Positions 6,485-49,828 of a stretch of 62,952 bases of DNA are shown in pieces. This DNA is from Candidatus Omnitrophota bacterium (lineage in GTDB: Bacteria; Omnitrophota; Gorgyraeia; Duberdicusellales; 4484-171). A program made the position numbers and the translations under genes. Position 1 is the first letter of the stretch. Every line of letters begins with the position of its first letter. The notes beneath the pieces are model-generated. The model made no database searches. It had not been told where the DNA came from and worked only from the letters and a program-made list of their open reading frames with translations. The stretch covers positions 1-62,952 of the forward strand of contig JAQUWY010000007.1 of NCBI GenBank assembly GCA_028692655.1, written 5' to 3'.

Positions 6485-6847
6485 TCATTTACGAAGCTTA
6501 TTTAGCTTACTGAAAAATATTTTGAACTCGGTTAGTTCTCTCACTTTTTCCAAATCAGGATCCCTGAGCATATAAGAAAACTCTTCGTATCCTATCAGAA
6601 CCGCCCGTTTAAGTTCTTTTAAAGCTTCCTGAGGGCAATCGAGAAGGGAAAGGCTGCAGGCTAAATTATAATGCACAAAAGGATCATCGGGTTTAAGCTC
6701 GGCGAGTTTTCTATCAACGGCAAGGCCTTCCTGATAAAAGCCTTTGCGGGTATAGGAATCTCCCAAAGAAATCAGGACATTTACAAAATTCGGGCATTCT
6801 TTAAGTATGCTTTCATAAAATTTTATTTCGAAGTCTTTCCTTCTCAT
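6485..6847 (-). CDS. TPR-repeat protein
   Basis: LGDSYTRKG, YNLACSLS motifs; AGGAG upstream of MRRK start. Confidence 0.8.
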   Translation of the reverse strand: MRRKDFEIKFYESILKECPNFVNVLISLGDSYTRKGFYQEGLAVDRKLAELKPDDPFVHYNLACSLSLLDCPQEALKELKRAVLIGYEEFSYMLRDPDLEKVRELTEFKIFFSKLNKLRK

Positions 6848-6877
6848 TCTGTCGCTTCGCTCCTGCACGCTGATGAT

Positions 6878-6955
6878 CGCAGATTAGATACCGCAGATTG
6901 ACACAGGTATTATTCTGTGATCATCTGCGATTTTTCATCTGTGGCCATCTGCGTT
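6878..6955. repeat. CAGAT/ATCTG degenerate hairpin element, copy 1
   Basis: Tandem CGCAGATT units facing ATCTGCG/ATCTGTG units. Confidence 0.7.
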
Positions 6956-9303
6956 TTCTCTAGGATGATTTCTTCACGCAAGAGATATATCGCTTCTTCA
7001 AGATATTTTTTGAACTTTTGATAGTCTTTCTGCTCTACAATCGGCTTCTTCACAACGAATTCCTGCTTAAAATTAATAATTCCTGCGGCTTGCCGGCAGG
7101 AAACAGTAAGCTTAAACCAGGGGTTGTCTGAAATTACCTGACTTGGCAAATATTTTATAGTTACATTCTCGGGCAGCACTATATTGATATCAGCCGACTT
7201 AGTGTACAATCCTTCAAAATCTATGGGATAATTTCTTTCCTCTTTGCTTATCAATTTATAATCCAGATATACCTGATCCAAAACCGGGACTATCCGCAGT
7301 TTACCCGCCGGATTAAAAAATTTGTCGGCAAAGAAATTATAAATAAGCCTGGGGTTAGAGTCTAAACCTTCTATATTTTCAATTTTGTAATCCTTTAACT
7401 GCGAAAGAGAAGATATCTCCATCATTTTTTTCTGGATATTCTCTTTTATTATTTCAGGATGTGTATATTTTACATACCAGCGGTAAGAAGCAGCAAAAAA
7501 TCCCTCGCTTATAACACTTCTGGTAATGTCAGCGTTTTCCTCCAGTGAAATTTTTATATCCATGCCGTAACGAATAACATTATCGCTACTTTGTGGTGTA
7601 ACAAGCATTTCCCAGGTATCATCGAAAAAGACTAAAACTTTCCTGTCCTGATCTGAGGAAGGTATCCGGCCAAAAGAAGTTGTTTCGGCGGTAGGATCCA
7701 TAAATATAAGTTTACCCTCAATCTGCACAGCACAAATGGCATGATTAAAGTTTAAAGAAGGAAAACTTTCTTCTGCCGGATAAACTTGCCGGGTAGGAAT
7801 CAATACGGGATAAGCCGAAAGGCCGGCTTTTTTCAACATAGCTACCAGTAAAATAGCCTGGTCTTTGCAGTCGCCATAACGGTTAGTAAACACTTCCTGG
7901 GCCGAATGAGGTTCGTAGCCGCTGTCTCCGTATTCTATTGCCACATAGCGAATATTTTGGGCCACGAATTCATAAATGCTCTTGGCTTTTTGATAATCAT
8001 CCGCTTTGCCTTTTATCAAACCTTCTACAGCCGCTAAAGCATCTTTGCCTAAATCTAATTTCCCCTTATACAAAGATTTCCACCAGGTATAAATCTGGCC
8101 CCAAGAAGAAAAGCTTGAAACCGCAAATGCAGGATTAATCATAGACTCCGGCGGCATAGCGTATTCAGGAATGATGGATTTTACTTCCTTGAATTCCCAG
8201 CTATATATATTATTATCGGCATCCTGGCTCATAACCGGCTCAAGATTAATTTCTTTAGCATATCCCGGGTTAAAAAATTTGAATCTAGGCTGGGTTTTCT
8301 TAGGGACTATAAGCCGGAAAGAGGCTTTAAATATGGGGTAGGCTTCCCGCAAACGATAAATAAAGCTAAAGTCTTTTTCGTTGACAAGTTTAGAAGAATA
8401 AATTTTTAGTTTATACTCTATAATAGCGCCTACGTCGACTGCTGGCATAGAGACAATAAATGCCCGGGAATTACTGTATAGAGGAAAGTTAAGATACCTG
8501 CTGACATCTCTGATGTTTTCTCCTCCGGCATATACAACTTTGCCGTCTTTGGTGATAGTGCGGGCAAACTCCAATTCTACTCTCTGATAAGTAGAATCAT
8601 ACCCAACCTCAACTTCAGCAAGGCTTTTGCCCCGTTCTTTTAAAACCTTTTCTACAACATGAATTGAAGAAATAGATGTATTCTCTTCTGTTATTCTGGT
8701 TTCTTCATCCACAAGAAGCATTAGAGCAGCTTCGTCTTCTATTTTCTGAATAAATTCCTGGGAAGATTTATCCAGTTCCTCTACCTGGGGCGGGATTTTA
8801 CCCTCACTATTTGTCTTTATAAATTTTATTCTCTTTTGGGCTTTTTGTTTAAACCGGCCTTGAATTTTAGCATAGATTTTTAAAGCTTTAGGGAAAAGGT
8901 TTTTATTCTCCAAGACATCCCCGTAAAGATAAAGGTATTCTGAATCTTGCGGTTGGAGTTTAATCTGCTCAAAAAGAGCCATAGCAAAGTCGTATTCTTT
9001 TAGACGGGCGTATGTTTTAGCAAGAAGGTGGCTGGCTACAGGATTATCAAAACCAATGAGAATATCTTTTGCTTTTTGATAATCTCTAAAATTATAGTAG
9101 AACTGGGCTAGCTCGAGCCTTAATTTGGCATCATCCGGATTAAGAGCAAGCGCCTGTTGATAACTGGCGGTTAAATTCTGATAGTTCCTGCTAAAATCCG
9201 TAAGGCTTTCCTGCTGATAAAGACACCTGTTCGAAGCAGAACAGGAATAGAAACTCACCAGTAATAAAACTATTATTAATTTATGAAATGATTTTAAGCA
9301 CAC
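6910..9303 (-). CDS. Probable lipoprotein: TPR + DUF3857 + transglutaminase-like domain
   Basis: Lipobox-like FYSC; GDCKD, FNHAI, MDPT give Cys-His-Asp triad. Confidence 0.85.
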   Translation of the reverse strand: MCLKSFHKLIIVLLLVSFYSCSASNRCLYQQESLTDFSRNYQNLTASYQQALALNPDDAKLRLELAQFYYNFRDYQKAKDILIGFDNPVASHLLAKTYARLKEYDFAMALFEQIKLQPQDSEYLYLYGDVLENKNLFPKALKIYAKIQGRFKQKAQKRIKFIKTNSEGKIPPQVEELDKSSQEFIQKIEDEAALMLLVDEETRITEENTSISSIHVVEKVLKERGKSLAEVEVGYDSTYQRVELEFARTITKDGKVVYAGGENIRDVSRYLNFPLYSNSRAFIVSMPAVDVGAIIEYKLKIYSSKLVNEKDFSFIYRLREAYPIFKASFRLIVPKKTQPRFKFFNPGYAKEINLEPVMSQDADNNIYSWEFKEVKSIIPEYAMPPESMINPAFAVSSFSSWGQIYTWWKSLYKGKLDLGKDALAAVEGLIKGKADDYQKAKSIYEFVAQNIRYVAIEYGDSGYEPHSAQEVFTNRYGDCKDQAILLVAMLKKAGLSAYPVLIPTRQVYPAEESFPSLNFNHAICAVQIEGKLIFMDPTAETTSFGRIPSSDQDRKVLVFFDDTWEMLVTPQSSDNVIRYGMDIKISLEENADITRSVISEGFFAASYRWYVKYTHPEIIKENIQKKMMEISSLSQLKDYKIENIEGLDSNPRLIYNFFADKFFNPAGKLRIVPVLDQVYLDYKLISKEERNYPIDFEGLYTKSADINIVLPENVTIKYLPSQVISDNPWFKLTVSCRQAAGIINFKQEFVVKKPIVEQKDYQKFKKYLEEAIYLLREEIILEKTQMATDEKSQMITE

Positions 9304-9571
9304 TTTTAATATCCTGGCCTTCCTTTATTCCCAGGCTTTTAGCTTTACGGCTGGCTGAATACACGTTGGAACTCAAAGCCTGCTTGATGGTAGAAACACC
9401 TTTGATTAAAACCGCCGTATCTTTAAAGCTGTCGGCAGCTTTTAAGTTTAGATAGCCGCACATCACATAACCGCGCCTGCCTTTTAGAATTATCAGCTTC
9501 TTTTTCCCCAGAGGCATACAATAAGCTGCGATATTTTTTCTGCCTATCCTTATCTTTTTAGTTTGCAGCAT
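9281..9571 (-). CDS. DUF1805/YunC family protein
   Basis: GYVMCGYLN motif, 96 aa. Confidence 0.85.
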   Translation of the reverse strand: MLQTKKIRIGRKNIAAYCMPLGKKKLIILKGRRGYVMCGYLNLKAADSFKDTAVLIKGVSTIKQALSSNVYSASRKAKSLGIKEGQDIKSVLKIIS

Positions 9572-9601
9572 TTTTAAAAGATTTGCTTTTTAAGATACTA
9601 T

Positions 9602-10753
9602 CTATTTAAGAGCTTTTATAAATCTCTCTATGCGGATTATCGCTTCTTTTAAATTGTCCAGAGTGTTGGCGTAAGATATCCTTATATGCGTATCAAATTC
9701 GTCGCCAAAAGCTTTTCCCGGAACGACAGCGACTTTTTCCTGAAATAAAAGCTTCTTCGCAAAATCCAGGCAATTAACATGGAATTTTTTCAGGGAAGGG
9801 AAACAATAAAAAGCGCCTTGAGGCTTTGGAGTATAGAATCCCAGGCGGTTTAATTCCTTAACTACAAAGTCTCTTCTTCTTTTATATTGGCTCCGCATAT
9901 CCGCGACTTCTCTCTGAGCCCGCAGAGCTTCTATCGCGGCAACTTGCGAAACAATAGGGACACACATCATTGAAAAAGAATGGATTTTAGTCATGGCAGA
10001 AATAATTTCCTTGTCAGCACATACATACCCCACCCTAAACCCTGTCATCGCATACCCTTTGGAAAACCCATTAAGCAGAATCGTTTTACGTTTGGCTTTT
10101 TTATCTAAAGCAGTAAAAGGTACATGCTTAAAATCGTAGGTCAACTCATCATAAACTTCATCGCTTATAACAAGCGCCCCGCTTAAAGCTATCAGACGCC
10201 AAATCTTTGCGAGCTCCGAACCAGAATAATGAACCCCAGTCGGGTTTGAAGGATTGTTCAAGATAATAGCTTTAGGTTTTACAGATAGGGCGTTCTTTAG
10301 CTGCTTTAAATCTATCTTAAAATCACTTTTTTCGTCAGTAATTAGATACTGCACTTTTGCTCCGGCAATTTGTGCTAAAGCCGGATAAGCTACGTAATGA
10401 GGGCTTATTACTAAAACCACGTCTTTTGGCTCTACTATGGCACGCAAAGCAAGGTCAAGCCCTTCACTGACACCGGTAGTTATTAAAATTTCATTTTCCG
10501 GTTTATAGTTAAGCGAGTATTTAGAATTTAGAAATTCAGAAATCCCCTGACGAAGGCTAAGTAAACCGCTGTTAGAAGTATAAGAAGTCAAGCCTTCTTC
10601 AAGAGCAGTAATAGCTTTTTCCCTGATTCTCCAAGGGGTTATAAAATCCGGCTCGCCTACACCCAGGGAAATAACCTCCGGCATGCCCAGCACCAGGTCA
10701 AAGAATTCCCTGATTCCCGAAGGAGAAACTTTTTTTATGTGTTTAGCAATCAT
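9602..10753 (-). CDS. Class I/II PLP-dependent aminotransferase
   Basis: LGVGEPDF, NPSNPTG, SDEVY, GFSKGYAMTGFRVG; start moved to MIAK. Confidence 0.93.
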   Translation of the reverse strand: MIAKHIKKVSPSGIREFFDLVLGMPEVISLGVGEPDFITPWRIREKAITALEEGLTSYTSNSGLLSLRQGISEFLNSKYSLNYKPENEILITTGVSEGLDLALRAIVEPKDVVLVISPHYVAYPALAQIAGAKVQYLITDEKSDFKIDLKQLKNALSVKPKAIILNNPSNPTGVHYSGSELAKIWRLIALSGALVISDEVYDELTYDFKHVPFTALDKKAKRKTILLNGFSKGYAMTGFRVGYVCADKEIISAMTKIHSFSMMCVPIVSQVAAIEALRAQREVADMRSQYKRRRDFVVKELNRLGFYTPKPQGAFYCFPSLKKFHVNCLDFAKKLLFQEKVAVVPGKAFGDEFDTHIRISYANTLDNLKEAIIRIERFIKALK

Positions 10754-10762
10754 ATTATTTCT

Positions 10763-10833
10763 GTGCCTGTACACCAGCCACCAGTGCACCAGTTAATTTT
10801 TCTCACCAGTGCTATGGCGTTACTGTAACCGGC
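10763..10833. repeat. CACCAG(T/C) ~7-mer repeat tract
   Basis: caccagc-caccagt-gcaccagt ... caccagt in lrp-aminotransferase gap. Confidence 0.55.
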
Positions 10834-10839
10834 ACTCCT

Positions 10840-11322
10840 TTAATAGGTTATCGGCAATCTTTGGTTTTTGTCTTTTTTTGTTAAAATTATCCCGTCTTCT
10901 TTATATTTTTTAAGCATAAAATGTGTAGCCGTAGCTTTTACCGAACTCAAAGGAGCCAGCTTTTCGGAAACAAATCCAGCCACAGTCTGTATATCTTTGC
11001 CGGAGACCTCTAACAGCAAATCATACGTACCCGACAAAAGATAGCAATTTTTTACTTCCGGAAAACGGTAAATCCTTTCAGCGATAAGATCGAAACCTAC
11101 ATCTTTCTGCGGTGCTATTCTAACTTCTATAAGCGCTACGACGTTCTGTTCATTTTTGAGTTTTGTTTTATTAATAATAGCTTTATATTTTACGATAATT
11201 CCTTTTTTTTCGTAACTCTTTACTGCTTTTTCTATTTCTTTGATACTCTTGCCGGTTAATTTTTTCAGGTCTTCAAAAGAAATCCTGGCATTACTTTCTA
11301 AAATCTCCAAGATATCATCCAT
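10840..11322 (-). CDS. Lrp/AsnC family transcriptional regulator
   Basis: ILEILESNARIS HTH, SGTYDLLL; AAGGAGG RBS before MDDIL. Confidence 0.93.
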   Translation of the reverse strand: MDDILEILESNARISFEDLKKLTGKSIKEIEKAVKSYEKKGIIVKYKAIINKTKLKNEQNVVALIEVRIAPQKDVGFDLIAERIYRFPEVKNCYLLSGTYDLLLEVSGKDIQTVAGFVSEKLAPLSSVKATATHFMLKKYKEDGIILTKKDKNQRLPITY

Positions 11323-12437: not shown

Positions 12438-12442
12438 ATTTT

Positions 12443-12520
12443 TCGGTTTGCGGTTAACGGCGTTCGGTTTTCGGATTTTCTTTTTTTTCGAAAACCGCAA
12501 ACCTAAAACCGACAACCGAA
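12443..12520. repeat. 7-mer repeat hairpin (TTCGGTT / AAAACCG)
   Basis: ttcggtt tgcggtt aacggcg ttcggtt ttcggat facing aaaaccg caaacct aaaaccg acaaccg. Confidence 0.7.
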
Positions 12521-18694: not shown

Positions 18695-18776
18695 TGTTTT
18701 TCTCTTGTAAACAGATAATCACAGGTAAAACCTTATGTCTCCTTTTATATTTAACTTGTTCTCTGCTTTTTGTTTT

Positions 18777-22211: not shown

Positions 22212-23966
22212 TCATAAACGGCTATATTCACTCAACAACTCTTTAACTCTTTCGTTATCGCCTTCTTTTTCGGCCAGGCGGATCTTCTCCTGTAAAGTTT
22301 TCTTCTCCTCCAAAGCAGCCTTTTTGCAAAGCTTTAAAATGCTTTCTTTAAACACGTTTTTGTCTAAAGGCACATCATCATCCATCAAAATTTTAGAAAC
22401 AAAGCCGCTTATGCTTTTATCGTCGATAAGCCTTAAAAAAGACTGTGGAGAAACTGCCTCTTTTTCTAATTCAAGTTTAAAAAGAAAAGCGACTGTCTTG
22501 CGAACTAGAGCTGAAGTGAAATTCTTCTCTCTCAGGTTTTTCTTAACAATAAGAAACGCTTTTGGGTTAGTAAGCATGCATTTTAGCAAAATTTTTTCAG
22601 TAAAAGGGACAAATATTTCCTGAGAAAGCCGGCTTACGGGAGCGCCGGAATCAGACCTCGAAGCTTTCCGCTGTGCGAAACGATTATCCTTAGGGAAAAA
22701 ACTGCGAAATTCAGCTATGGCGATTTCTTCTTTTATTCCTAAGGCCTGTGATAACTTTTTTATATATTCATATTTTTCGATTTCACTTTGAAGCTTGTCT
22801 ATCGTGGTTAGCATGTCTTTGGCAATTTTGGTTTTCCCCTCTATACTGGTAGAATCATGCGTTTGCTTTAAAACTTCCAGTTTGTAGGTAAAAAAATCCC
22901 GGCTCTCATCTATCACTTTTGAAAAAGTTTCTTTTCCTTTTTTAAAAGCCAGGGAATCCGGATCATGCCCGGAAGGAACACATGCCACTTCTGCTTTTAA
23001 ACCGTTTTCGAGCAACAAATCTATTGAGCGTAGAGCAGCATTTCTGCCGGCCGAATCTGAGTCATACATAAGCACAACTGAAGAAGTATAACGTTTCAGA
23101 AGTCTTATTTGTTCAACAGTAAGTGCTGTCCCCAGAGAGGCAGCTATATTCTTAACTCCCCTCATAAAGGGAACAATCATGTCCAGATAACCCTCAACCA
23201 CTATCGCCGAGCCTTTGCGGACAATTTCATCTTTTGACAGATTAAGCCCAAAAAGATTGTCTCTTTTAGCATATATGACATTTTCTAAAGAATTTATATA
23301 TTTAGGAGCTTCGGGCACATTTCGCCAGAGCCTAGCCCCAAATCCAACAACCCGGGAACGAACATCAAATACCGGAAATGTAATTCTATCGGAAAATAAG
23401 TCTTTAAATCCGTTCCTACTCCCGCGCACCAAAGCTACTTTATCCATCTCTTCCAAAGTAAAACCGAGTTTCCTCAGGTGCTGTATTAAAGAATTTCCGC
23501 CGGGAGCATAACCCAAAAGAAATGTGTCCATAGTTTCCCGGGCTATTCCTCTGCTTTTCAAATATTCAACTATTTGTTTGCATCGTGAGCCGTCTTTTAG
23601 AGTTTTATGGTAAAAAACAGCGGCTTCTTGTAAAACTTTATAAAAAGTTTCTTTACTCTTGGCTCTTGGGCCTTTTTGGTATGGTATTTCAAGGCCCAAG
23701 CGCTTGGCCAGCATTTCCACGGCTTCCGGAAAATTAACTTTTTCAATCAGGCTGAGAAATTGAAAAACGCCTCCACCTTCTGAACAGCCAAAACAATGGA
23801 ATATCTGTTTTTGAGGGCTGACCATAAAAGAGGGGGTTTTTTCTCCATGAAAAGGGCATAAGCCTTTAAAATTCCTTCCGGATTTTTTCAAGGATACATA
23901 CTCAGACACCACCTCCACGATATCTGTCCGTGACTGAACTTCTTCTATAAATTTCTGAGGAATCAT
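22212..23966 (-). CDS. dnaG: DNA primase
   Basis: CPFHGEKTPSF zinc finger, VEGYLD, YDSD TOPRIM. Confidence 0.98.
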   Translation of the reverse strand: MIPQKFIEEVQSRTDIVEVVSEYVSLKKSGRNFKGLCPFHGEKTPSFMVSPQKQIFHCFGCSEGGGVFQFLSLIEKVNFPEAVEMLAKRLGLEIPYQKGPRAKSKETFYKVLQEAAVFYHKTLKDGSRCKQIVEYLKSRGIARETMDTFLLGYAPGGNSLIQHLRKLGFTLEEMDKVALVRGSRNGFKDLFSDRITFPVFDVRSRVVGFGARLWRNVPEAPKYINSLENVIYAKRDNLFGLNLSKDEIVRKGSAIVVEGYLDMIVPFMRGVKNIAASLGTALTVEQIRLLKRYTSSVVLMYDSDSAGRNAALRSIDLLLENGLKAEVACVPSGHDPDSLAFKKGKETFSKVIDESRDFFTYKLEVLKQTHDSTSIEGKTKIAKDMLTTIDKLQSEIEKYEYIKKLSQALGIKEEIAIAEFRSFFPKDNRFAQRKASRSDSGAPVSRLSQEIFVPFTEKILLKCMLTNPKAFLIVKKNLREKNFTSALVRKTVAFLFKLELEKEAVSPQSFLRLIDDKSISGFVSKILMDDDVPLDKNVFKESILKLCKKAALEEKKTLQEKIRLAEKEGDNERVKELLSEYSRL

Positions 23967-23980
23967 TTTTCTCTTCGTAA

Positions 23981-24070
23981 ACCGCAGATTAGCGCAGATT
24001 AATACTGCAGACGAACACAGACTTCATCAGTGATCATCCACTACTTTTTATCTGTGATCATTTGCGTTTA
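23981..24070. repeat. CAGAT/ATCTG degenerate hairpin element, copy 2
   Basis: cgcagatt agcgcagatt .. acacagac facing atctgtgatcatttgcg. Confidence 0.7.
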
Positions 24071-25020
24071 TGGGTAAACCGTTTAAATCCTGAAAATTCG
24101 TAAATATGAAGTTTTTCTTTTTTCTCTAAATGATCAAGCATCAAATTGATGCCTAAATTATCTGAAGCGATATGAGAAGCAAAGATAACATTGATGTTAA
24201 ACTCTTTACACTTCTTGAAATGCTCCTCCGACTGATGCATCGCTATTATAGTGTCTACGCCTCTGGCAGAAAGTTCCTTATAGATCCCTTGCGGGCCTTC
24301 GGTCCCTCCGGTGAATTCAAGATGTATATTCTTACAGCGGGAATTTTTGCTGCCTATAGCTAATTGAGGCGGGTTATTACTTTTGGCAGCATGCTGATAC
24401 TCCGGTATTTCGTAAAGAATTTCCAGGACTTGGCCAAGAGATTGCGGTTTATTTTTGTCCAGTTCCCGGCACAAATACTGGTAGGCAAGATTGTCACACG
24501 GAGTGTGCATGCACATAAAGTTCAATCCCAGAAGCCTAGCTGCATCGACGCTTCTGGAATGATTAGCCGCGCTAACCCTTCTGGCAACCTGAGCTTTTCT
24601 CTCTTTAAGAAGGTTTTCGCAAACACTTACCGCCACGCCTTCATCCGAAAAAACATCTACTTGCAAATCCATCACTTCATAAAACCGCGCATAAGCAGCC
24701 CCCTGGGGATGATGAGAAGCTACCAGGTCAATCTTTTCCCCTTTTTCTCTAAGCCTGTCCGCGAGTACTAACTCTCCCGCGTCAACATCAACTCCTACGA
24801 TCATAGACCTTATCTGATCCTGGGGGTCTCCCCAAAGCAGGCGGCTGTCGGCAAAAGGATTAAAGAGGCTGTCCTGGTCAAAAAACTCTTTTTCTTTGGC
24901 GCAAAGTTTTTCGTACTCCTTCTCCTTTTCTTTTAGCGCTTTTTCTATAGCCGGGCGGCTGCGAACATCGGCCTCAATGCCTTTCTTTATTATTTCCTGA
25001 TAAAGACTCTTTAGCTTCAT
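24058..25020 (-). CDS. NIF3/NGG1p-interacting factor family protein
   Basis: SHHPQG, HTPCDN, HIASDNLG. Confidence 0.85.
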   Translation of the reverse strand: MKLKSLYQEIIKKGIEADVRSRPAIEKALKEKEKEYEKLCAKEKEFFDQDSLFNPFADSRLLWGDPQDQIRSMIVGVDVDAGELVLADRLREKGEKIDLVASHHPQGAAYARFYEVMDLQVDVFSDEGVAVSVCENLLKERKAQVARRVSAANHSRSVDAARLLGLNFMCMHTPCDNLAYQYLCRELDKNKPQSLGQVLEILYEIPEYQHAAKSNNPPQLAIGSKNSRCKNIHLEFTGGTEGPQGIYKELSARGVDTIIAMHQSEEHFKKCKEFNINVIFASHIASDNLGINLMLDHLEKKEKLHIYEFSGFKRFTHKRK

Positions 25021-29509: not shown

Positions 29510-29745
29510 TGTATTATTCAAAAGTTAAGTTTACAGTCTACTCTATAACCGTATCATTTACCGTTAGAGGGTTGTACCTGCCTACCGGTAGGCAGGTAGC
29601 TGGAAACGGCTGTCGTTGAACGTTAATCATCTCTATTCATAAGATTTTATTAACGCAGCCGGCAAACAAATAACGATACGAGTTACGCAACCGTATACCG
29701 TTTGCCTTTACACAAAATATATAAACACATCTCCAGAATTATACA
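29510..29745 (+). mobile_element. MITE copy A (236 bp)
   Basis: TGTATTATTC..GAATTATACA imperfect ~26-bp TIRs; TTTTATC duplicated at 29503-29509 and 29746-29752. Confidence 0.9.
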
Positions 29746-34838: not shown

Positions 34839-36839
34839 TCAGCGTAGCACCACACCCTTGTAAGAGCTTAACGCCTTCCTGATATCATTATGAAAAAAAT
34901 CTACCTCCTCAGAAGAAAGGGTTTTTTCTGGAGATTGGTAAAAAATCCTTAAGGTAAACGCAGATTGATTTGAAGGTATATTTTTGTCTTTATATACATC
35001 TACAACTTGTAAATCGCTTAAATAATTTACTTTGCTGCGAATGATTTTTTCTATTTCCTTAAACCTTACATCGCGGCACAAAGCAATGCTTATATCTCGG
35101 CTCACAACAGGATAAGCGCTGAACTGTTTAAAAAACGCTTGTGAACTTTTTTTCTGTAAAGAACCTGCGTTAATTTGGCAAAAAAATACTTCCCCTTTTA
35201 GATCAAAGTCTTTTTTTACCGCTTGGTCTAACTTCCCCACAAATCCCAGAACATCTTCTCCAACGCATAGCGCTAAAGAATTGGTAAAATTATCCATCTC
35301 GGCCTCTTTGAAGTAATAGCCTTCTATATTCAAAAACTTCATTAATAATTCTACGGAACCTTTAAGCAGAAAAAAATCCTGGTTATTTCCTCCAAAAGCC
35401 AAAGCCAGCGACGGGATTTCCAAAAACCCGCTTTTTCCCAGCCCGTAGGTATCGGCTAATTCAAAAAACTTTAATTCATTCATGCCCCTGTTGAAATTAT
35501 GCCGGAGGCACCCCAGCATACCGGAAAGTAAACTTGGGCGCAGGCTGGCTTCCTGCTTGCGTAGGGGATTTATAATTCGCACAGTCGCCTCTTCTTGAAG
35601 CCGGGCGAGATCTTCTTTGGATTCAACACTGTAGGTCACTATCTCCTTAAACCCAAGCAAAGCCGCATAATCCTTTAGCTTGTTATTAAAACAATAACTC
35701 TGTTGGCCGCCGGCTTGAATTTTGGCACAAGCTGACGCTGGCAGAAATGGTATCCTGGACGGTATCTTGTCATACCCAAAAATACGGGATACTTCCTCGT
35801 AAACATCGACTTCTTTTCCAATGTCAAACCTCAACCGTGGAGGCATAATCGAAAAAACCTTGCTCGAAACTTCTCGAACCCTGCACCCCAAGGAAACAAG
35901 AATCTTTTTCACCTTTGCTTTTGGATACATAAGACCTAGATAACCTGAAAGCTTATCCAAATCCAAAATTATTTCTTTCCTTTTCGCCGCCGGTTTTTTC
36001 CCCGAAAAGCAACCGCCTGCGTAAATTCCGGAACATTTTTTTACCATAAGGAATGCGGCCTCTCGGCAAGCACACTCTAAATTGTCTGAAGACACCATTC
36101 TCTCGAACCGGTAGGAAGCTTCCGTATCAAGGCCGGCCGCACGGCGCGACCGCCGTACCGTAAGAGGAGAGAAAACAGCCGCTTCTAAAAAAACATTTTT
36201 AGTCTGGCTGGTAACTTCTGTATTTTTTGACCCCATAACTCCTGCCAAAGCAATAACTTTTTTATCATCAGCAATAACAAGATTCTGGCCGGTTAATTCT
36301 CTCTCCTTATCGTCAATGCCCAGGAATATCTCTCCTTTTCTGGCCCGTCGCACACAAACATTGCCTTCTATCTTATCTTCATCAAAAGCATGCAGGGGAT
36401 TACCCCATTTGAGCATGCAATAATTAGTTATATCTACTACATTGTTTACCGAAGTTAAACCACAATTAGCAAGAAACTGCTGCACTTTTAGGTCGCCTGG
36501 AGCAACCTTGGCCTGCCGCAGTACTTTGGCTATATAGTAAGGGCAATCCTGGCTGTCTTCTATCTTTATTGAACGAGCCTTATAAATTTTACCGGTTAAA
36601 GCAGGCGGTTCTTTGAGCTTTAATTTCTTGCCTAAAACTGCCGCTATCTCCCGGCTAATGCCCGTAATCGAAAGCCAATCGTAGCGGTTAGTAGTAACTT
36701 CTATATCAAAAACCCAGTCGCTGCCTAGTTTTTGCAAACTCTCAACTTCCATGCCAGCCATAGTCAAAACTTGAGACAGCCTTTCGGGCTCTATTTTGAT
36801 ATCTAAAAATTCTTTTATAAAATTTAAACTAAACCTCAT
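34839..36839 (-). CDS. pheT: Phenylalanyl-tRNA synthetase beta subunit (short form)
   Basis: DIEVTTNRYD, NNVVDITNY, HAFD, DVYEEV; start moved to MRFS behind AAGGAG. Confidence 0.96.
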   Translation of the reverse strand: MRFSLNFIKEFLDIKIEPERLSQVLTMAGMEVESLQKLGSDWVFDIEVTTNRYDWLSITGISREIAAVLGKKLKLKEPPALTGKIYKARSIKIEDSQDCPYYIAKVLRQAKVAPGDLKVQQFLANCGLTSVNNVVDITNYCMLKWGNPLHAFDEDKIEGNVCVRRARKGEIFLGIDDKERELTGQNLVIADDKKVIALAGVMGSKNTEVTSQTKNVFLEAAVFSPLTVRRSRRAAGLDTEASYRFERMVSSDNLECACREAAFLMVKKCSGIYAGGCFSGKKPAAKRKEIILDLDKLSGYLGLMYPKAKVKKILVSLGCRVREVSSKVFSIMPPRLRFDIGKEVDVYEEVSRIFGYDKIPSRIPFLPASACAKIQAGGQQSYCFNNKLKDYAALLGFKEIVTYSVESKEDLARLQEEATVRIINPLRKQEASLRPSLLSGMLGCLRHNFNRGMNELKFFELADTYGLGKSGFLEIPSLALAFGGNNQDFFLLKGSVELLMKFLNIEGYYFKEAEMDNFTNSLALCVGEDVLGFVGKLDQAVKKDFDLKGEVFFCQINAGSLQKKSSQAFFKQFSAYPVVSRDISIALCRDVRFKEIEKIIRSKVNYLSDLQVVDVYKDKNIPSNQSAFTLRIFYQSPEKTLSSEEVDFFHNDIRKALSSYKGVVLR

Positions 36840-36868
36840 ACGTCGCTTCCACTCCTTCACACTGATGG

Positions 36869-36952
36869 CCGCAGACAAATATTGCAGACAGCCACAGATA
36901 AAAAACAACATTTGTAATCATCGGCGTTCTTTAGTGTCTGTGAACATCTGCG
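36869..36952. repeat. CAGAT/ATCTG degenerate hairpin element, copy 3
   Basis: cgcagac..tgcagac..cacagat facing gtctgtgaacatctgcg. Confidence 0.7.
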
Positions 36953-36955
36953 ATA

Positions 36956-38035
36956 TCAAAATTGATCTAAAAACCTGACATCGTTTTCATAAAAAAGCCG
37001 TATATCGTCTACCCCGTACTTAAGCATTGCTATTCTCTCTACGCCCATGCCGAAAGCAAATCCCCGATATTTTTTGGGACTTATCCCGCAGGCTTTTAAA
37101 ACATCCGGGTGTATCATGCCGCAGCCTAAAATTTCAAGCCAGCCTTTGCCCTTACACACGCTGCATTTAGCGGTTTGCGGTTTGCGCCTGCCTGCCAGTA
37201 GGCAGGATTTATCAGTTTGCACAAATGACTTTTTATTTCTGCATATAATACAGGAAATATCCACCTCAGCCGAAGGTTCGGTGAAAGGAAAAAAATGCGG
37301 CCTGAATCTTAAGGATACATCGGGAGAAAAAAAAGTATGCGCGAACTGCAGAAGTACGCCTTTTAAATGGGAAAAATCCAGGCTTTCAGCCACAGCAAAG
37401 CCCTCTATCTGATGAAACATAAAAGAGTGCGTAGCATCAACTTCATCGGGCCTGTAGACTCTGCCGGGAGAAATTACCGCCAAGGGCGGCTTGGCATTCT
37501 TCATTACTCGAATTTGAGAAGGCGAGGTATGGCTTCTTAATAGATATTTGCCTTTTTTTGACTCCGGAATATCCAAATAAAAGGTATCAAAAGCATCCCT
37601 GGAAGGATGGTCTAAAGGTATATTTAAAGCTTCAAAATTGTGCCATTCGTCTTCAATCTCGGTTCCCTCAATAACAGAAAATCCTATATTTTCAAAAATA
37701 GAACATATCTGCCGGTTGACTTTAGTCAATACATGCAAAGAACCAGTATCAGGAATCCTGGAAGGAAAAGTTAGATCGGTCTTAGGTTCTGTCATTTGGC
37801 CAGTAGAAAGTTTTTGCTCCAATAATACAGTCATCTTGTTTTTTAAAACATTAAGGGCTTTGCCATAAACAGCCTTTTCTTCTTTAGACAAAGAAGGAAT
37901 TTGAGAAAAAAGCTTGGCCAAAGAAGACTTACGCCCCAGAAAATCGGTCTTAATTTCTTCTAGGCTCTTAGCATCATTATCGGCCTTTAGACGGTTATTA
38001 AATTCCTGGAATAATTGTTTAATTTTTTCTTCCAT
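36956..38035 (-). CDS. pheS: Phenylalanyl-tRNA synthetase alpha subunit
   Basis: HPSRDAFDTF, LRSHTS, FHQIEG, FPFTEPSAEVD, FAFGMGVER. Confidence 0.98.
   Translation of the reverse strand: MEEKIKQLFQEFNNRLKADNDAKSLEEIKTDFLGRKSSLAKLFSQIPSLSKEEKAVYGKALNVLKNKMTVLLEQKLSTGQMTEPKTDLTFPSRIPDTGSLHVLTKVNRQICSIFENIGFSVIEGTEIEDEWHNFEALNIPLDHPSRDAFDTFYLDIPESKKGKYLLRSHTSPSQIRVMKNAKPPLAVISPGRVYRPDEVDATHSFMFHQIEGFAVAESLDFSHLKGVLLQFAHTFFSPDVSLRFRPHFFPFTEPSAEVDISCIICRNKKSFVQTDKSCLLAGRRKPQTAKCSVCKGKGWLEILGCGMIHPDVLKACGISPKKYRGFAFGMGVERIAMLKYGVDDIRLFYENDVRFLDQF
37171..37206. repeat. REP-like palindrome plus 7-mer repeats in frame inside pheS
   Basis: cggtttg x2 followed by CCTGCCTGCCAGTAGGCAGG. Confidence 0.75.
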
Positions 38036-44369: not shown

Positions 44370-44375
44370 TTTAAA

Positions 44376-44472
44376 TTCGTATAGAGTGTATCGTATTTCG
44401 TATATCGCAATGCGATAATGCCTTTCTTAAATTCTCAATACGAAGCATTATATACGCTATACGTTATACGAA
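44376..44472. repeat. 7-mer repeat hairpin (TATACG/CGTATA) between tRNA-Val and thrS
   Basis: ttcgtatagagtgtatcgtatttcgtat facing atacgaagcattatatacgctatacgttatacgaa. Confidence 0.7.
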
Positions 44473-45219
44473 AATGGTGGGCGGTGTAGGATTTGAACCT
44501 ACGACCCTCTGAATGTAAGTCAGATGCGCTTCCGCTGCGCCAACCGCCCGTTTATTTGCCCAAATTCCAAGGCCTTTAATCCAGCCGTTAATTTTTGATC
44601 TAAGGCTTGTATCTGCTATAACAATTCTAAATGTTCCTAAAGGTAACGTATCTCTTTTATTTTTACAAACCTTGCTTACAGCAAATTGTGTTTTATGAAA
44701 CTGTTTAAGTGGTATACCACTGGCTTGTGCCCAAAATTTCCTTGCTTTGTTTTCGTCTAAATGCGGATGCAAATGAAGAGCCCCTCGAAACTTAGAGCTA
44801 GAAACACCGCAGACCTCACGAAAGAAACGCATCATTAATTTAATCATCTGGGGGTCTGAATTGCTAAAATTAACCATATTCACCCCCGCCTTATATCCTT
44901 CAGCCCAATACAATGCGCTTCCAACAATACACAATGTCTTTAAAGAACAATTCGCCGGTATTTGGGCGGCCGCATCTCGCTCAATTGCCTGTCGTTTACA
45001 TAGCCAGAATTGCTTTGGGCTGTTGGGATGATTTGCGGCTTTCGCGCGTGCCCTATCTTGATTATTACGTAGCTTTGCTATTTGAACCTCTGTAAGAGCT
45101 ACGTCTCTAACCCACCTGCTTACAGAACTTTTTGAACACCCCAACTCTTTCGTAATGGACCTAACAGACCATCCTCGCTGACGTAATTGTCTCGCTTGCT
45201 GTTTTTTGTGTTTCTTCAT
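44464..45219 (-). CDS. HTH + LAGLIDADG-like domain protein; ORF reads through tRNA-Val
   Basis: N-terminal HTH (GWSVRSITKELGCSKSSVSRW); GSALYWAEG and FSNSDPQMI motifs. Confidence 0.65.
   Translation of the reverse strand: MKKHKKQQARQLRQRGWSVRSITKELGCSKSSVSRWVRDVALTEVQIAKLRNNQDRARAKAANHPNSPKQFWLCKRQAIERDAAAQIPANCSLKTLCIVGSALYWAEGYKAGVNMVNFSNSDPQMIKLMMRFFREVCGVSSSKFRGALHLHPHLDENKARKFWAQASGIPLKQFHKTQFAVSKVCKNKRDTLPLGTFRIVIADTSLRSKINGWIKGLGIWANKRAVGAAEAHLTYIQRVVGSNPTPPTIFV
44475..44549 (-). tRNA. tRNA-Val(TAC)
   Basis: GGGCGGT/ACCGCCC acceptor, TCTGA-CTTACAT-TCAGA, GTAGG-TTCAAAT-CCTAC, CCA. Confidence 0.97.
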
Positions 45220-45250
45220 TATCGAACCTCTGTATTAGTATCAAAATAAA

Positions 45251-45279
45251 TTATAATCCAGAGGTTCCTCACTGTCAAT
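45251..45279 (-). promoter_or_regulatory. Perfect-consensus sigma70 promoter with overlapping inverted repeat
   Basis: TTGACA-N17-TATAAT; GAACCTCTG..CAGAGGTTC spans -10 and +1. Confidence 0.85.
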
Positions 45280-45301
45280 AAGCCCTTGGCGAATACGCTC
45301 A

Positions 45302-45329
45302 ATGATACCAAATTTTTTTGAAAAATCAA
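45302..45329 (-). promoter_or_regulatory. Second upstream promoter (possible ancestral tRNA-Val promoter)
   Basis: TTGATT-N16-TATCAT with TG extension. Confidence 0.45.
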
Positions 45330-45381
45330 CCCTATAACTTCGCCCGGCGGACTGGCCAGACCTGAACTCAAAGACACTAAT

Positions 45382-45822
45382 TTATCCCTTGGGCAAAGCG
45401 GTCATACAAAAAACCATAACAAACAAAGCTACAGTTTCAATTACGCCCAGAACCATGATGTAGTTTCCAAAGCCTTTACCTGTCTCAGCTAAGGCATCAG
45501 AAGCTTTTGCGGCGGCTTTACCCTGAAAAAAAGCCGAAAGCCCCATGGCAAGCCCGCCAAGACAGCCTATAATCATCTGGTAGATATATGCGTCTGAAGG
45601 AAGCTTTGCCGCTTGTATAGCGTTACGTAAAATCATCCCGTAAATGGTTTGAGACAGCGGAGCTCCCACAAAAGCTATCAAAATAAAAGGAGCCACTTTA
45701 TTCTGGATAAAGGCCTTCTTCCAGGCGCCTATCGCCGCCATACCCGCGACCCCTGTTCCCATAGCTGAGCCTATTGCCGAAAGAGTTAAAGAAAAATTCA
45801 TATCTCCTAGACCTTCTACCAT
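45382..45822 (-). CDS. V/A-type ATP synthase subunit K (proteolipid)
   Basis: Four TM helices, PLSQTIYG, IETVALF; AGGAGG RBS. Confidence 0.93.
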   Translation of the reverse strand: MVEGLGDMNFSLTLSAIGSAMGTGVAGMAAIGAWKKAFIQNKVAPFILIAFVGAPLSQTIYGMILRNAIQAAKLPSDAYIYQMIIGCLGGLAMGLSAFFQGKAAAKASDALAETGKGFGNYIMVLGVIETVALFVMVFCMTALPKG

Positions 45823-45876
45823 ATACACCTCCTGATTTATAAAATAATTTTTTGTATATAAACGATACCTCTATCC

Positions 45877-47649
45877 TTATTCTTTAAACGGCTTGTATTC
45901 TTTTCCGGACCACTCCATACCTAAATGGCCGGAAAATTCAAGCATGTTTAAACGCATTCCGTGAACAATCACCGCCATAAATCCTAAGGTTATATTTAGT
46001 GTGTGGCCCAAAACAAGAATAAGCGCGGCCATAAACCCTGCAACTACGCTATTGATACCTGAAGCCAACGCCATATTATTAAAGCTTGAGGCAACTATAG
46101 CCGAAGCATAACCTACAGCAAACAATCTTAAGTATGAAACTATATCCGAAAATGAACTTATAACGCTTAAAGGCAGGTTACCTAAAGATATTAGGGCCCC
46201 TTTGAGCATATTCTTTTGGGGATTAGAAAACAATACTGCCAGAATCAGCCCAATTGAGAGCAGCCAGAGAGAAAGCCCAGGTAGGCGGCTTCCTAAAACA
46301 AGCGAGTTGGCTACGAAAAAGACTCCCCAAAGTATACAGATCCAGCCCACCTGAGCCAGAGCTTTCAGAGAATTTATTAAAGACAGCGCTAACTTAGCGT
46401 GGGCTATTGTCAGGTGTATAACTCCTATCACAAAACAAAGCCCCATCATGAAGCTCTGGTTTGTAGTTGAGGCCGAGCTTATCTTATTAACAACTACTGC
46501 TTTAAAAACCGGCAGTTGCGCTATTTTTTCACAGCCAAACCATGTGCCGGTTATAGCACCCCAGGCAATAGTGGCTAAGCTTAACACACCTATTAAAAAA
46601 AAGGGTTCTGAAGGCGCCCTGGGAAATTTTTTTCTGGCATAAAGAGTAATAAAAAGAAAAATTATTCCGTAACCGGCATCTCCTATAAGCATAGCAAAGA
46701 AAAGACTGAAAAAGAGAAGAAACCAGAAACTTATATCAAATTCTTTATAGCCGGGAACCGTTCCCATAAACTTAAATACCGGGTCTATAATCCTCACCCA
46801 GCGGGGATTTCTTATCAATGTAGGAACCTCCTGGGGTTCATCAGGCTCCTCCACCAACAATGCCCATCCATGCTGGATAGCCGCCTCATTTATCGCGGGC
46901 ACGTCTTCGCTGGGGCAAAAACCTTTCAAACAGTAAATACCCTGTTTATTGACCATGCCAAACCGTACATGGCAAAAATCGAGCCTCTTGTGGAATTCTG
47001 TTTTTACGCGGGAGAAGTACCTGGCATAAATTCTAAAATCGTCTATCTGCTTGTCAATTTCTTTAAAGTCAGCAGCCAGTATATATATCATTTTCTGTAA
47101 TGCGTTTTTATCTATATTGGGCACATGAACTTCGGGAAGATTTAGCGCCTCTTGCGCATCTCTGGTTACCAGCGCCAGGCGAAGGCCTCCTTTCTCCCGG
47201 GACAAAACATAAACAAGTTTTCCGGTATCTATTTGTTTAAGACTGCTTTTGGGCCCGTAATAAAGCTTTATGAAAACGCCTTCTTTCTTCAGCCGCTGCA
47301 GAGCTCCGTAGGAAACATCACCCCATTCCCGGAACCAATCCAGCCTCTTTTTTAAATTTTCTATCTGAGAAGCGAGCTCTTGCCTCTGCCCGCTTAAAGC
47401 TAATATTTTTTTTGCTATCAAGACGGCTTTAGAATTATCTAAATCCTTCTGGGGAGCCTTACTGCTTCCAAGCAACGTCAGAATTTTATCAACCATGGGA
47501 ATCCTGCGGTTTAAAGTATCGATATAATCCGCATGCGGTGGCTGCATAGGCTCAACATGCACCAGGCCAAGTTTGCGCAGCCGTCCTACGGCGCTGTTAG
47601 CGTCTTTTTCAGCAACCATAACTGTTATTTTTTTCATTCTAACAATCAT
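45877..47649 (-). CDS. V/A-type ATP synthase subunit I
   Basis: GDAGYG, SYLRLFA, HGMRLNMLEF. Confidence 0.95.
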   Translation of the reverse strand: MIVRMKKITVMVAEKDANSAVGRLRKLGLVHVEPMQPPHADYIDTLNRRIPMVDKILTLLGSSKAPQKDLDNSKAVLIAKKILALSGQRQELASQIENLKKRLDWFREWGDVSYGALQRLKKEGVFIKLYYGPKSSLKQIDTGKLVYVLSREKGGLRLALVTRDAQEALNLPEVHVPNIDKNALQKMIYILAADFKEIDKQIDDFRIYARYFSRVKTEFHKRLDFCHVRFGMVNKQGIYCLKGFCPSEDVPAINEAAIQHGWALLVEEPDEPQEVPTLIRNPRWVRIIDPVFKFMGTVPGYKEFDISFWFLLFFSLFFAMLIGDAGYGIIFLFITLYARKKFPRAPSEPFFLIGVLSLATIAWGAITGTWFGCEKIAQLPVFKAVVVNKISSASTTNQSFMMGLCFVIGVIHLTIAHAKLALSLINSLKALAQVGWICILWGVFFVANSLVLGSRLPGLSLWLLSIGLILAVLFSNPQKNMLKGALISLGNLPLSVISSFSDIVSYLRLFAVGYASAIVASSFNNMALASGINSVVAGFMAALILVLGHTLNITLGFMAVIVHGMRLNMLEFSGHLGMEWSGKEYKPFKE

Positions 47650-47662
47650 CGCTATAACTAAT

Positions 47663-48277
47663 TCAAACAGGAACGGCCATTTGCTTCCTGCGGTTTATTT
47701 TAGCTTTGGCAATTTTACCCCTCACGACTTCGGCAGTCTGGAGCTCGCCTAAATATATCTGTATAACTCTGATATTTTCCTGGGCCAGAGGAATTTTTAC
47801 TTTTTCAAAAAGATTCACCCTCTGGGAAGCTATGTGTAATTCTTCTTTCAGAATTTCCAGTTGCTTATGATAAACCTCCAGCTTAGCCTTCAAAGTTATC
47901 ATCTCCTTAAGAGCTCCAATACCCGCATCCACCCAAAGAGGCATATTAAATAAGTCATATTGGGATTCTTTAAATTCGACTCCTTTAAAAACCGGCATAT
48001 CTATTCCCGCTACATTTCCGGAAATAGTATTTATCTTTTTAAGGCTGCAAAAATCAGAAAGTTTTACGTCTTCAGCAAATACGTCAACCCAGCCCACAAC
48101 TTTATTTCTGAAATTTTCTATATCCTGGGCTAATTCTTTAATCGCCTGGTGAACTTTTACTATTTCCAGCTTAAGCTGTTTTTCTTTAAGCTGCAGCATG
48201 GGAAGGTAGCGATTAAACCTTTTAAGCTCTTCCTTCTGGTGTTTTAATTCGTTTTTGGTCAGCCTGATTTTAGCCAT
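47663..48277 (-). CDS. V/A-type ATP synthase subunit D
   Basis: LPMLQLKEKQL, QRVNLFEKVKIP. Confidence 0.95.
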   Translation of the reverse strand: MAKIRLTKNELKHQKEELKRFNRYLPMLQLKEKQLKLEIVKVHQAIKELAQDIENFRNKVVGWVDVFAEDVKLSDFCSLKKINTISGNVAGIDMPVFKGVEFKESQYDLFNMPLWVDAGIGALKEMITLKAKLEVYHKQLEILKEELHIASQRVNLFEKVKIPLAQENIRVIQIYLGELQTAEVVRGKIAKAKINRRKQMAVPV

Positions 48278-48337
48278 GCTATTATTAAAAAGTCTTGCGG
48301 GAATCTCTTAGGCCATAAACCCGTGAGCTCTTCGGAT

Positions 48338-49714
48338 TCATTCTTCATAATCCTGTTCTTGAGAGGATTCACCAGAAAGGTCCTCCGAAGATTCCGCTGC
48401 TTGAGGATTGGCGCCTGGAGCCTTAGCCGGCCAGAATTCCTGGACTAAGTCAGTACGAAAGCTTGTCTCCTGAGGTAGAAAACATTCCGAGAGGATTTTC
48501 CAGCCGTTATCAAGAGCCTTTTCCAAAGAAATATTGACTGATAAATCCATCATGTGAGCTTCAAATAGCTTGCCGTACTTAAGCAATTTTTTATCCCAGG
48601 CGGTCATACGGAAGCCCATTGAACGTTTTTCTTCGGCTTCTTTATATTGGGCATACAGCTGTATCATACCATCCATTATGGCCCTGTGGTCCTTGCGGGT
48701 CTTATCATTGACCTGCTGTTTAAGACGGCTCAAAGAACCAAAAGGTTCTATCCTGGCTCCTCTTAAATAGAACTGCCCCTCGGTAATATAGCCAGTATTA
48801 TCCGGAACAGGATGCGTAACATCATCTCCGGGCATAGTAGTAACCGCTAAAATAGTTACCGAGCCGGCACCTTCAAAATCAACGGCTTTCTCGTACCTCC
48901 GGGCTAATTGGCTGTATAAATCGCCAGGATAGCCCCTGTTAGAAGGAACCTGTTCCATAGTAATGGCTATTTCCTTTAAGGCGTCCGAAAAATTTGTCAT
49001 ATCGCTTAGAAGCACCAGGACATCTTTGCCTACCAGTGCAAATTTTTCAGCTACCGCCAGGCATAAATCCGGAACCATCAAACCTTCAACTATAGGGTCT
49101 GAGGCAGTATGTACAAAAAATACGGAACGAGACAAGGCGCCGCCGTCATCTAAAGCTTTTTTAAAAAACATGTATTGGTCATATTTAAGGCCTATGCCGC
49201 CTAAGACAATCATATCAACTTCGGCCTGAAGGGCTATGCGGGCCAGAAGTTCATTGTAAGGCTCTCCGGAAATAGAAAATATCGGCAGCTTCTGGGAAAC
49301 AACCAGAGAGTTAAAAACATCTATCATCGGTATATTGGTGCGAATCATCCTTTCGGGAATAATCCTCTTGGCGGGATTAACCGAAGGCCCGGTTATCTCA
49401 ATAAGGTTTTCGCTTAAATCCGGCCCCTTATCCCGGGGCCTGCCGCTGCCGTCAAAAATTCTACCCAGCATATTTTCAGAAAAACCAACCCTCATGGGAA
49501 AACCTGAAAATGTAACTTCGTCATTGGTAGAAATGCCGCGGCTGCCGGAAAAAACTTGTAAAGATACTATGTCCGCTTCAAGTTTTATGACCTGTGCCAG
49601 GGAAGAACCTCGAGCACTTTTAACCAGGGCTAATTCTTCATAGCTTACGCCATCGGCCTTTACCGTAATAACATTTCCGTTAATGCTTAATATTTTACTG
49701 TGAACTTTCCTCAT
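48338..49714 (-). CDS. V/A-type ATP synthase subunit B
   Basis: [28 protein letters not shown]. Confidence 0.96.
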
Positions 49715-49732
49715 TTATCTCTTCGCTCCTAT

Positions 49733-49828
49733 GTGCAGATATATACAGCTCCCTATTGCAAACAATCACAGATAAAAATACTATCCGCAATTATCAGCGC
49801 CCTTTGTCCTCTGCGCTCATCTGTGTAT
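49733..49828. repeat. CAGAT/ATCTG degenerate hairpin element, copy 4
   Basis: tgcagat..cacagat facing ctctgcgctcatctgtgt. Confidence 0.65.

Follow-up and report, generated by a model that had tools for sequence, protein, structure and literature searches.

What kind of sequence can stand between two genes of an operon, close the first and bring the start region of the second? We address this question in a stretch of 62,952 nucleotides from contig JAQUWY010000007.1 of a Candidatus Omnitrophota bacterium (assembly GCA_028692655.1), which we call the window. It contains four imperfect palindromes that are related to one another, each about 90 nt long and followed by a 3' tail of 15-17 nt (about 110 nt in total), and all lie on the minus strand, which is the coding strand here. 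A sequence-only reading of this DNA had described four hairpins at junctions inside operons, and by direct reading and alignment we find every one of them in its place. We think it probable that they belong to one family of small gene-less palindromic repeats, comparable to miniature inverted-repeat transposable elements (MITEs), repetitive extragenic palindromic (REP) sequences and enterobacterial repetitive intergenic consensus (ERIC) sequences, and that this family is a dispersed, non-autonomous element which splits translationally coupled junctions, would have moved between loci and would supply a ribosome-binding site (RBS). The element is an intercistronic repeat akin to known ones and not a new kind of system.

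The four copies, numbered e1 to e4, lie between gene pairs that we named by Pfam and that are all co-directional with their neighbours. The hairpin body of e1 (6868-6954) stands between a DUF3857/transglutaminase gene with tetratricopeptide repeats (TPR) and a small TPR gene, and is built of two nested stems of CRCAGATG units. The upstream stop codon TAA (6910-6912) falls in the loop, the upstream open reading frame (ORF) having read 14 codons into the 5' arm, and the tail AGGAGCGAAGCGACAGA (6848-6864) abuts the ATG of the TPR gene (6845-6847), with a GGAG 12 nt before it. The body of e2 (23982-24069) lies between a NIF3-like gene, whose TGA (24058-24060) is inside the first unit (CGCAAATGA), and dnaG; its tail TTTACGAAGAGAAAA (23967-23981), which has a CGAAGAGA core in common with e4 and no GGAG, runs up to the dnaG ATG (23964-23966). 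Between pheS and pheT, the pheS stop TGA (36956-36958) precedes the first unit of e3 (body 36860-36953) by 2-3 nt, and the tail AGGAGTGGAAGCGACGT (36840-36856) is followed by the true pheT start (ATG 36837-36839). Copy e4 (body 49734-49826) separates subunits A and B of a V-type ATPase: the TGA of subunit A (49794-49796) and its last 10 codons are in the 5' arm, and the tail AGGAGCGAAGAGATAA (49715-49730) leads to the ATG of subunit B (49712-49714). The listed longest-ORF starts at 6868 (GTG) and 36911 are not the true ones for these two downstream genes, as homologues favour ATG 6847 and ATG 36839.

All copies share one plan. The 5' arm consists of two to four CRCAGAT(G) units and the 3' arm of inverted ATCTGYG units; the 5' arm of e1, for example, reads CGCAGATGG-CACAGATG-AAAAAT-CGCAGATGAT-CACAGA. 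The units are phased about 10 nt apart, and the loops of 8-20 nt hold no ORF in the four window copies. The tail is non-palindromic and purine-rich, with the consensus (A)GGAGCGAAGCGAC, and 0 nt lie between it and the next ATG in e1-e4. From stop codon to ATG, the four element-bearing junctions measure 62-116 nt.

The relationship between the copies can be measured. In leave-one-out nhmmer searches of the 63-kb window each omitted copy was recovered (E 7.8e-17, 4e-13, 8.8e-14 and 7e-8) and nothing matched besides the four, and a covariance model (R1), run over the window with filters off, found no fifth copy. The mean column identity of the alignment is 73%. A consensus hairpin from seven copies has 31 pairs, five of which have changed on both sides with the pairing kept. 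The fold of e1 reaches -38.8 kcal/mol (z -5.3 vs shuffles), and the degenerate copies e2-e4 have z values from -1.0 to -1.8. The best non-family match (E about 1, not significant alone) is a possible decayed 3' arm with tail on the minus strand of the gatA-gatB junction (18695-18730), which reads CCTGTGATTATCTGTTTACAAGAGAAAAACA-ATG, compared with ATCTGCGGTTTACGAAGAGAAAA-ATG in e2. We had also considered the tail of e2 as native NIF3 codons, and dropped this reading because an identical string follows ATCTG at the gatB junction.

The copies also reach into the upstream proteins. The peptide tails that the sequence-only reading gave for two of these proteins are right: TQMATDEKSQMITE at e1 and TQMSAEDKGR at the end of subunit A at e4. 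Homologues of the transglutaminase protein stop 1-4 residues past ILEK, and the window protein is 12-14 residues longer, all of them element-coded. For V-ATPase A the length is unchanged (583 aa) and the last 10 residues are coded by the element. The protein upstream of e2 ends ...KRK*, and the ORF upstream of e3 only adjoins the hairpin. On the downstream side, the small TPR gene after e1 has about 10 N-terminal codons fewer than its relative. By hand translation, every copy has a stop in each of the three frames; the 5' arm or loop closes all of them in e1, e2 and e4, and in e3 one frame stays open for about 33 codons, to a TGA at the 3' end of the hairpin. Such three-frame closure is unremarkable for AT-rich DNA.

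Does the tail belong to the repeat or to the genes that follow it? In 1.25 Mb of sequence, comprising the window and the fetched loci, GAGCGAAG[CA]GA occurs three times, each time between an ATCTG arm and an ATG: in e1, in e4 and in L011, a locus from the metagenome-assembled genome (MAG) of a different Omnitrophota bacterium. In L011 the upstream gene codes for a histidine kinase, with its TAA immediately before the first unit, and the downstream gene for a response regulator; the element reads GGAGCGAAGCGAC-ATG. The window itself comes from an uncultured Omnitrophota bacterium of a landfill metagenome, whose DNA runs X1 and X2 contain the sequence. When landfill contigs are aligned to e1, the tail appears before other genes as GGAGCGAAGCGAC-GA-ATG AAG ATT TGG... 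and as GGAGCGAAGCGAC-ATG GCG AAG AAA..., and a further tail ends ...ATCTGTGAATAGGAGCG. The shared tail noticed by the sequence-only reading is thus part of the repeat and not of the host genes, since it recurs before ATG at unrelated junctions in L011 and in contigs of the source metagenome.

The landfill reads also bear on the number of copies. A 31-mer of the e1 arm has a depth of 42, compared with about 11 for the flanks, and therefore several near-identical copies exist. Several contigs at genome depth (about 10-12) end inside the element. We take this as evidence that copies may have been duplicated recently. For e3, no sibling of at least 80% identity was found in the source metagenome. 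A separate observation concerns L007, from the MAG JBAYNQ010000070.1. At positions 1190-1500 the final 85 nt of the window's pheS, followed by e3 and ATGAGG, recur in an ectopic fragment at about 80% identity. This fragment is not at a pheS-pheT junction; its neighbours are a 1286-aa ORF and a gene for an AMP-binding enzyme. Its frame enters the hairpin for 6 codons because the pheS stop has mutated from TGA to TGG. The fragment is either a copy that took flanking DNA along or part of a chimeric contig.

Were the copies gained in this lineage, or lost by its relatives? The window is 99.99% identical to GCA_028715335.1, the only genome returned by an exact look-up of ribosomal protein L20. Among 80 V-ATPase loci of relatives (at most 76% amino acid identity, 1.04 Mb), model R1 gave no match. 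The A-B junction could be located in 43 of these loci, and the hairpin is absent from all 43: the two genes overlap by 1, 4, 17 or 20 nt or are separated by a gap of at most 15 nt, apart from three exceptions with other inserts. None of the 43 carries GAGCGAAG[CA]GA or GGAGCGAAG, and the nearest resemblance to the tail is in L045, where the whole 15-nt A-B spacer is AGGAGCTGGATATAA. The sequence-only reading had named as damaging to its own case a tail kept by relatives that lack the hairpin. As the tail is absent from such relatives and recurs at unrelated junctions, this point is answered in favour of the element.

A syntenic relative (Logan ERR1025324_142 / GCA_017994375) allows all junctions to be compared. 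Where the window has e1, the transglutaminase and TPR genes of the relative overlap (-8); where it has e2, NIF3 and dnaG are 41 nt apart; where it has e3, pheS and pheT share an ATGA overlap (-4); and where it has e4, V-ATPase A and B overlap by 17 nt (-17). At gatA-gatB the relative has 22 nt and the window 82 nt. The cleanest case is pheS-pheT, which reads CAGTTT-CCGTT-ATGAAG in the relative and CAATTT-[TGATAT + hairpin + tail]-ATGAGG in the window, so that the pheS stop, the hairpin and the tail all lie within the extra segment. As far as these sequences go, the comparison shows copies gained in this lineage at junctions that are tight, overlapping or short in relatives. The nearest PheS and V-ATPase A homologues are at most 68% and 84% identical, respectively. 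No close empty site was found, and the one sister-species contig (L217, 82-86% nucleotide identity) ends 350 nt before e1.

How could such insertions leave an operon working? Each copy takes up all the space from the final conserved codon of one gene to the ATG of the next. Without a terminator, transcription would read through the element; the units (CAGATGA) and the loop would close the upstream reading frame; and the unpaired tail, 0-4 nt from the ATG, would offer a GGAG or an A-rich leader, from which the downstream gene could start independently after coupling is lost. The element would be tolerated because it has no terminator and brings stop codons and an initiation tail. An imperfect mRNA hairpin of about 30 bp is probably also a stability barrier or a processing site, as REP, ERIC and Correia hairpins are.

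Several observations are consistent with this mechanism. The minus strand shows no terminator-like site at any copy, and a GC-rich hairpin followed by a T run, the mark of an intrinsic terminator or attenuator, is not seen in the copies. The suggestion in the sequence-only reading that the elements insert without polarity agrees with this lack of terminator-like sites. Promoter-like matches on the copies are at background level. A GGAG/GAGG/AGGA core at a distance of 3-16 nt before the start is found in 21 of the 61 genes of the window, with spacings of 3-13 nt. The duplex energies of the tails are -6.5 to -8.8 kcal/mol for an anti-Shine-Dalgarno (anti-SD) sequence assumed to be canonical, and the GGAG lies 2-4 nt beyond the stem and is unpaired in the folds. 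The GGAG of the tail plausibly acts as an RBS. Of the earlier proposal that the element brings its own RBS, the tail abutting the start codon stands, with a GGAG in e1, e3 and e4; its function as an RBS is our reading of these signals, and e2 does without the GGAG. The tail consensus also includes GCGAAGC, known as a very stable DNA mini-hairpin motif, to which we give little weight.

Several points weigh against this explanation. The GGAG of the tail is 11-12 nt from the start codon, which is long for an SD sequence and at the long end of the 3-13 nt range of this genome; about two thirds of the window genes have no SD core at all; and e2 has an A-rich leader in place of the GGAG. At least one landfill copy is tailless, the nearest ATG being more than 30 nt away. 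The L011 hairpin body obtains its better score when read against the direction of its tail, an arrangement that a palindrome can reach by inversion of its spacer. Neither a transposase nor a consistent target-site duplication was found, nor did any close relative show an empty site, and mobility is therefore drawn from the distribution of the copies. The sense fold is more stable in e2, e4, L007 and L015, the antisense fold in e1 and L011, and the seven-copy consensus has 24 G-U and 16 A-C mismatch cells, with no significant skew; these energies and counts do not favour selection on the RNA over selection on the DNA. Finally, native junctions of relatives resemble the units (CGTAAAAAATGA at NIF3, GGATGAAAAA at the transglutaminase gene), and two subunit A homologues have a C-terminal TQI motif, which hints that homology-guided replacement may be favoured over simple insertion. 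Of the small mobile element or scar that the sequence-only reading proposed, a dispersed repeat gained at gene junctions stands up, and transposition goes beyond what a repeat with neither a consistent target duplication nor a transposase can establish. More broadly, that reading was largely right about a lineage-specific element which ends one gene and brings the initiation region of the next, and ran ahead of the evidence on RBS function and mobility.

Might the hairpins then belong to something larger? One possibility, which we regard as tentative, is that they are ORF-less members of a cross-phylum class of unit-array cassettes, together with the PF05635/GxxExxY cassettes and the intervening sequences (IVS) of 23S rRNA, which would spread by a so far undescribed mechanism that targets hairpins or junctions, the tail having been acquired in Omnitrophota. 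The sequence-only reading had likewise asked whether the hairpins are the empty form of cassettes carrying small genes. A screen for inverted arrays 250-1000 nt apart turned up the relative L095 (10813-11330), in which a PF05635 gene (23S_rRNA_IVP, E 1.8e-13) with an inverted AACATCG array on either side is inserted between V-ATPase B and D, followed by GAAGGGATT-ATG. No filled CAGAT copy was found in this screen, and no small ORF lies between the inverted arrays of the window copies, where loops are 8-20 nt. The idea of a filled cassette thus holds at the level of the class, through the L095 cassette with its AACATCG units, and not yet for the CAGAT family. Like the IVS of Coxiella 23S rRNA, as presented in PMC4990558, and the PF05635/GxxExxY mini-cassettes, the hairpins follow a design in which inverted flanks pair into a stem enclosing a short loop or small gene; unlike these, the window copies contain no ORF, belong to mRNA and not to rRNA, and are made of CRCAGAT instead of AACATCG units. 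If the cassette reading were true, a portable initiation tail would let the Omnitrophota subfamily split coupled pairs, even pheS-pheT and V-ATPase A-B, without cost.

The taxonomic spread of short-unit palindromes is relevant here. A strict scan for the 3'-arm pattern in a collection of genome contigs, which leaves out the window's own genome, returned 21 loci, mostly chance; six of them are real hairpins (L005, L007, L011, L014, L015 and L021). A loose pattern on IMG/VR viral contigs also gave mostly chance matches, with real hairpins in L130, L137 and L175. CRCAGAT-unit hairpins without the tail are found in Chitinophagales MAGs (in L005 where two genes converge, and as tandem copies in L014 and L021), at the groES-groEL junction of an unclassified MAG (L015) and in the three IMG/VR contigs. 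Those of L005 (2716-2829), L021 (1119-1380) and L014 (366-556) consist of CCACAGAT/CGCAGAT units in a two-tier architecture like that of e1 and carry no GGAG tail.

Other, independent inserts occur at the V-ATPase A-B junction of other Omnitrophota: a 119-nt hairpin of CGTATAT units (L060:11729-11850), ACCACAGAG repeats that start right after the stop of A at a contig end (L032:4946-5017) and a structured insert of 281 nt (L033:2909-3190). The window has a hairpin of CGTATA/TATACG units like that of L060 between tRNA-Val and thrS (44370-44463), a second family of short-unit palindromes in this DNA. It also contains an intergenic repeat of 235-253 nt in three copies (29510-29744, 54962-55226 and 60208-60472), 85-89% identical and one of them inverted, which includes the palindrome TACCTGCCTACCGGTAGGCAGG; a fourth copy of this palindrome is inside pheS (37185-37206).

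Could the hairpin have been kept for what it does in the mRNA? Under this alternative it is a selected cis-acting RNA module and not a selfish insert; a sequence-specific factor would bind its CRCAGAU arrays, or RNase III would cleave it, to set the ratio or stability of the cistrons, and the four operons would share one post-transcriptional control. We consider this unlikely. All copies lie on the mRNA-sense strand at junctions inside operons, the phasing of the units by about 10 nt recalls arrays of binding sites, the degenerate e2, e4 and L007 fold better in sense, with more G-U pairs, and the same CRCAGAT units occur in distant phyla; but the four operons are functionally unrelated, the copies are about 30% divergent, e2-e4 are barely more stable than shuffled sequences, e1 and L011 fold better in antisense, and the element is absent at the same junctions in all relatives.

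The resemblance between native junctions and units leads to another alternative, which is quite improbable in our judgement. Here homology-guided copying, by gene conversion or template switching, took place between unit-like junctions such as ATGA-type overlaps, and the native junction was replaced and not interrupted. This would fit the exactness with which the element spans from the last conserved codon to the ATG, with no native spacer left and about 10 N-terminal codons of the TPR protein lost, and it would fit the lack of an evident target duplication. The native NIF3 end ...CGTAAAAAATGA can be compared with CGCAAATGA in e2, and the native transglutaminase end GCCGGTGGATGAAAAA with GCCACAGATGAAAAA in e1; subunit A ends ...FLKTQI... 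in two homologues; and L007 has an ectopic pheS 3' end of 85 nt together with the element and ATGAGG. These resemblances are short, A-rich and possibly due to chance, however, the L007 contig may be chimeric, and near-identical arms at several loci suit any copying mechanism.

It is very improbable that the copies are elements of the REP type, or REPINs built from them, moved by a REP-associated tyrosine transposase (RAYT, IS200-like Y1): the window does have an ORF with a Y1_Tnp domain (1859-2446), and REPs are palindromic, intercistronic and able to stabilise upstream mRNA (Delihas 2011, PMC3184786), but REPs are 20-40 bp with a GTAG or CGTC tag, as characterised in PMC3733652, where our bodies are about 90 nt with no such conserved tag at either end, no CRCAGAT hairpin lies near or flanks the RAYT gene, and the GC-rich GGGCG hairpins tied to it differ in sequence. 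Near this ORF a small ORF (1208-1609) has a weak HEPN (RiboL-PSP) match, and the two lie in a cassette-like region at the start of the window whose sequence is unrelated to the CAGAT hairpins.

Among known systems, how should the preferred reading, a dispersed repeat gained at gene junctions, be placed? The terminal inverted repeats of a MITE are present, as the whole body is an imperfect palindrome. A target duplication of fixed length is not seen when the flanks are inspected by eye: e2 alone has a direct repeat (CGGTTTAC), and e1, e3 and e4 have none. Nor does the window contain a parent insertion sequence (IS) or transposase with matching ends. The repeat at e2 is 8 nt long (23982-24090), with one copy inside the NIF3 coding sequence, 9 nt ahead of the first unit, and the other where 3' arm and tail meet; the gatB junction likewise shows GTTTTAC...GTTTAC, and this may be chance or a footprint. 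In Rfam 15 only two tRNAs exceed the threshold within the window and no family covers the elements; the e1 region has sub-threshold microRNA-like hairpin matches only. A blastn search of e1 against plasmids and phages gave no match, and literature searches found no description of a CRCAGAT hairpin family.

ERIC sequences, also called intergenic repeat units (IRU), of enterobacteria and the Correia elements or Neisseria miniature insertion sequences (NEMIS) of Neisseria are gene-less imperfect palindromes of about 100-150 bp, co-transcribed and often found inside operons. Their long mRNA hairpins change how stable the transcript is or serve as substrates of RNase III, and they can extend neighbouring ORFs. 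The CRCAGAT hairpins are like them in being gene-less imperfect palindromes within operons that extend upstream ORFs. They differ in having no sequence similarity, arms made of arrays of 7-nt units phased by about 10 nt, and a conserved tail that abuts the start codon; a TA target duplication and a site for integration host factor (IHF) are not evident here.

Mycobacterial interspersed repetitive units (MIRUs) are repeats in gene direction within operons, direct and tandem, with small ORFs and with ends that overlap the flanking stop and start codons. Because of these overlapping ends, MIRUs preserve expression of the downstream cistron. The likeness is the position between operon genes and the gene direction; here, in contrast to direct tandem units of 40-100 bp with small ORFs, we find a hairpin whose SD-like tail replaces coupling, and by hand reading the frame of the tail relative to the ATG differs between copies. 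The intercistronic nature of MIRUs goes back to Supply (1997), as cited in PMC3184786. REP2 of Neisseria and the inverted repeats (IR) of Borrelia are dispersed immediately upstream of genes, REP2 with an RBS and ATG (Delihas 2011, PMC3184786). REP2 also comes with a promoter and falls short of a full palindrome, whereas the CRCAGAT copies are inside operons, have promoter matches at background level and also terminate the upstream ORF. The MITE Chunjie of Geobacter uraniireducens reportedly stems from an IS and shows classical terminal inverted repeats as well as target duplications, features that are not shown for the CRCAGAT hairpins. It shares with them the insertion into operon spacers, which according to Chen (2008), as cited in PMC3184786, left the operon undisturbed. 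What sets the CRCAGAT family apart from these intercistronic repeats is the combination of unit-array arms, a tail that abuts the start codon and the replacement of coupled junctions.

Selection for coupled, equimolar translation presumably preserves the overlapping stop/start junctions of heteromeric enzymes, among them PheRS alpha/beta and V-ATPase A/B. In this lineage the repeat has replaced four tight or short junctions, three of which overlap in relatives (-4, -8 and -17), the NIF3-dnaG spacer being 41 nt, and each replacement leaves a hairpin and a shared tail of initiation type. The element also rewrites protein C-termini: one protein gains 12-14 residues, and in V-ATPase A the element supplies 10 in place of the original ones. 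The family is part of a little-described landscape of short-unit palindromes in Omnitrophota, Chitinophagales and other uncultured lineages. If its tail works as an RBS, it would be a natural portable 'uncoupling' module, and a ready-made intercistronic part for synthetic operons.

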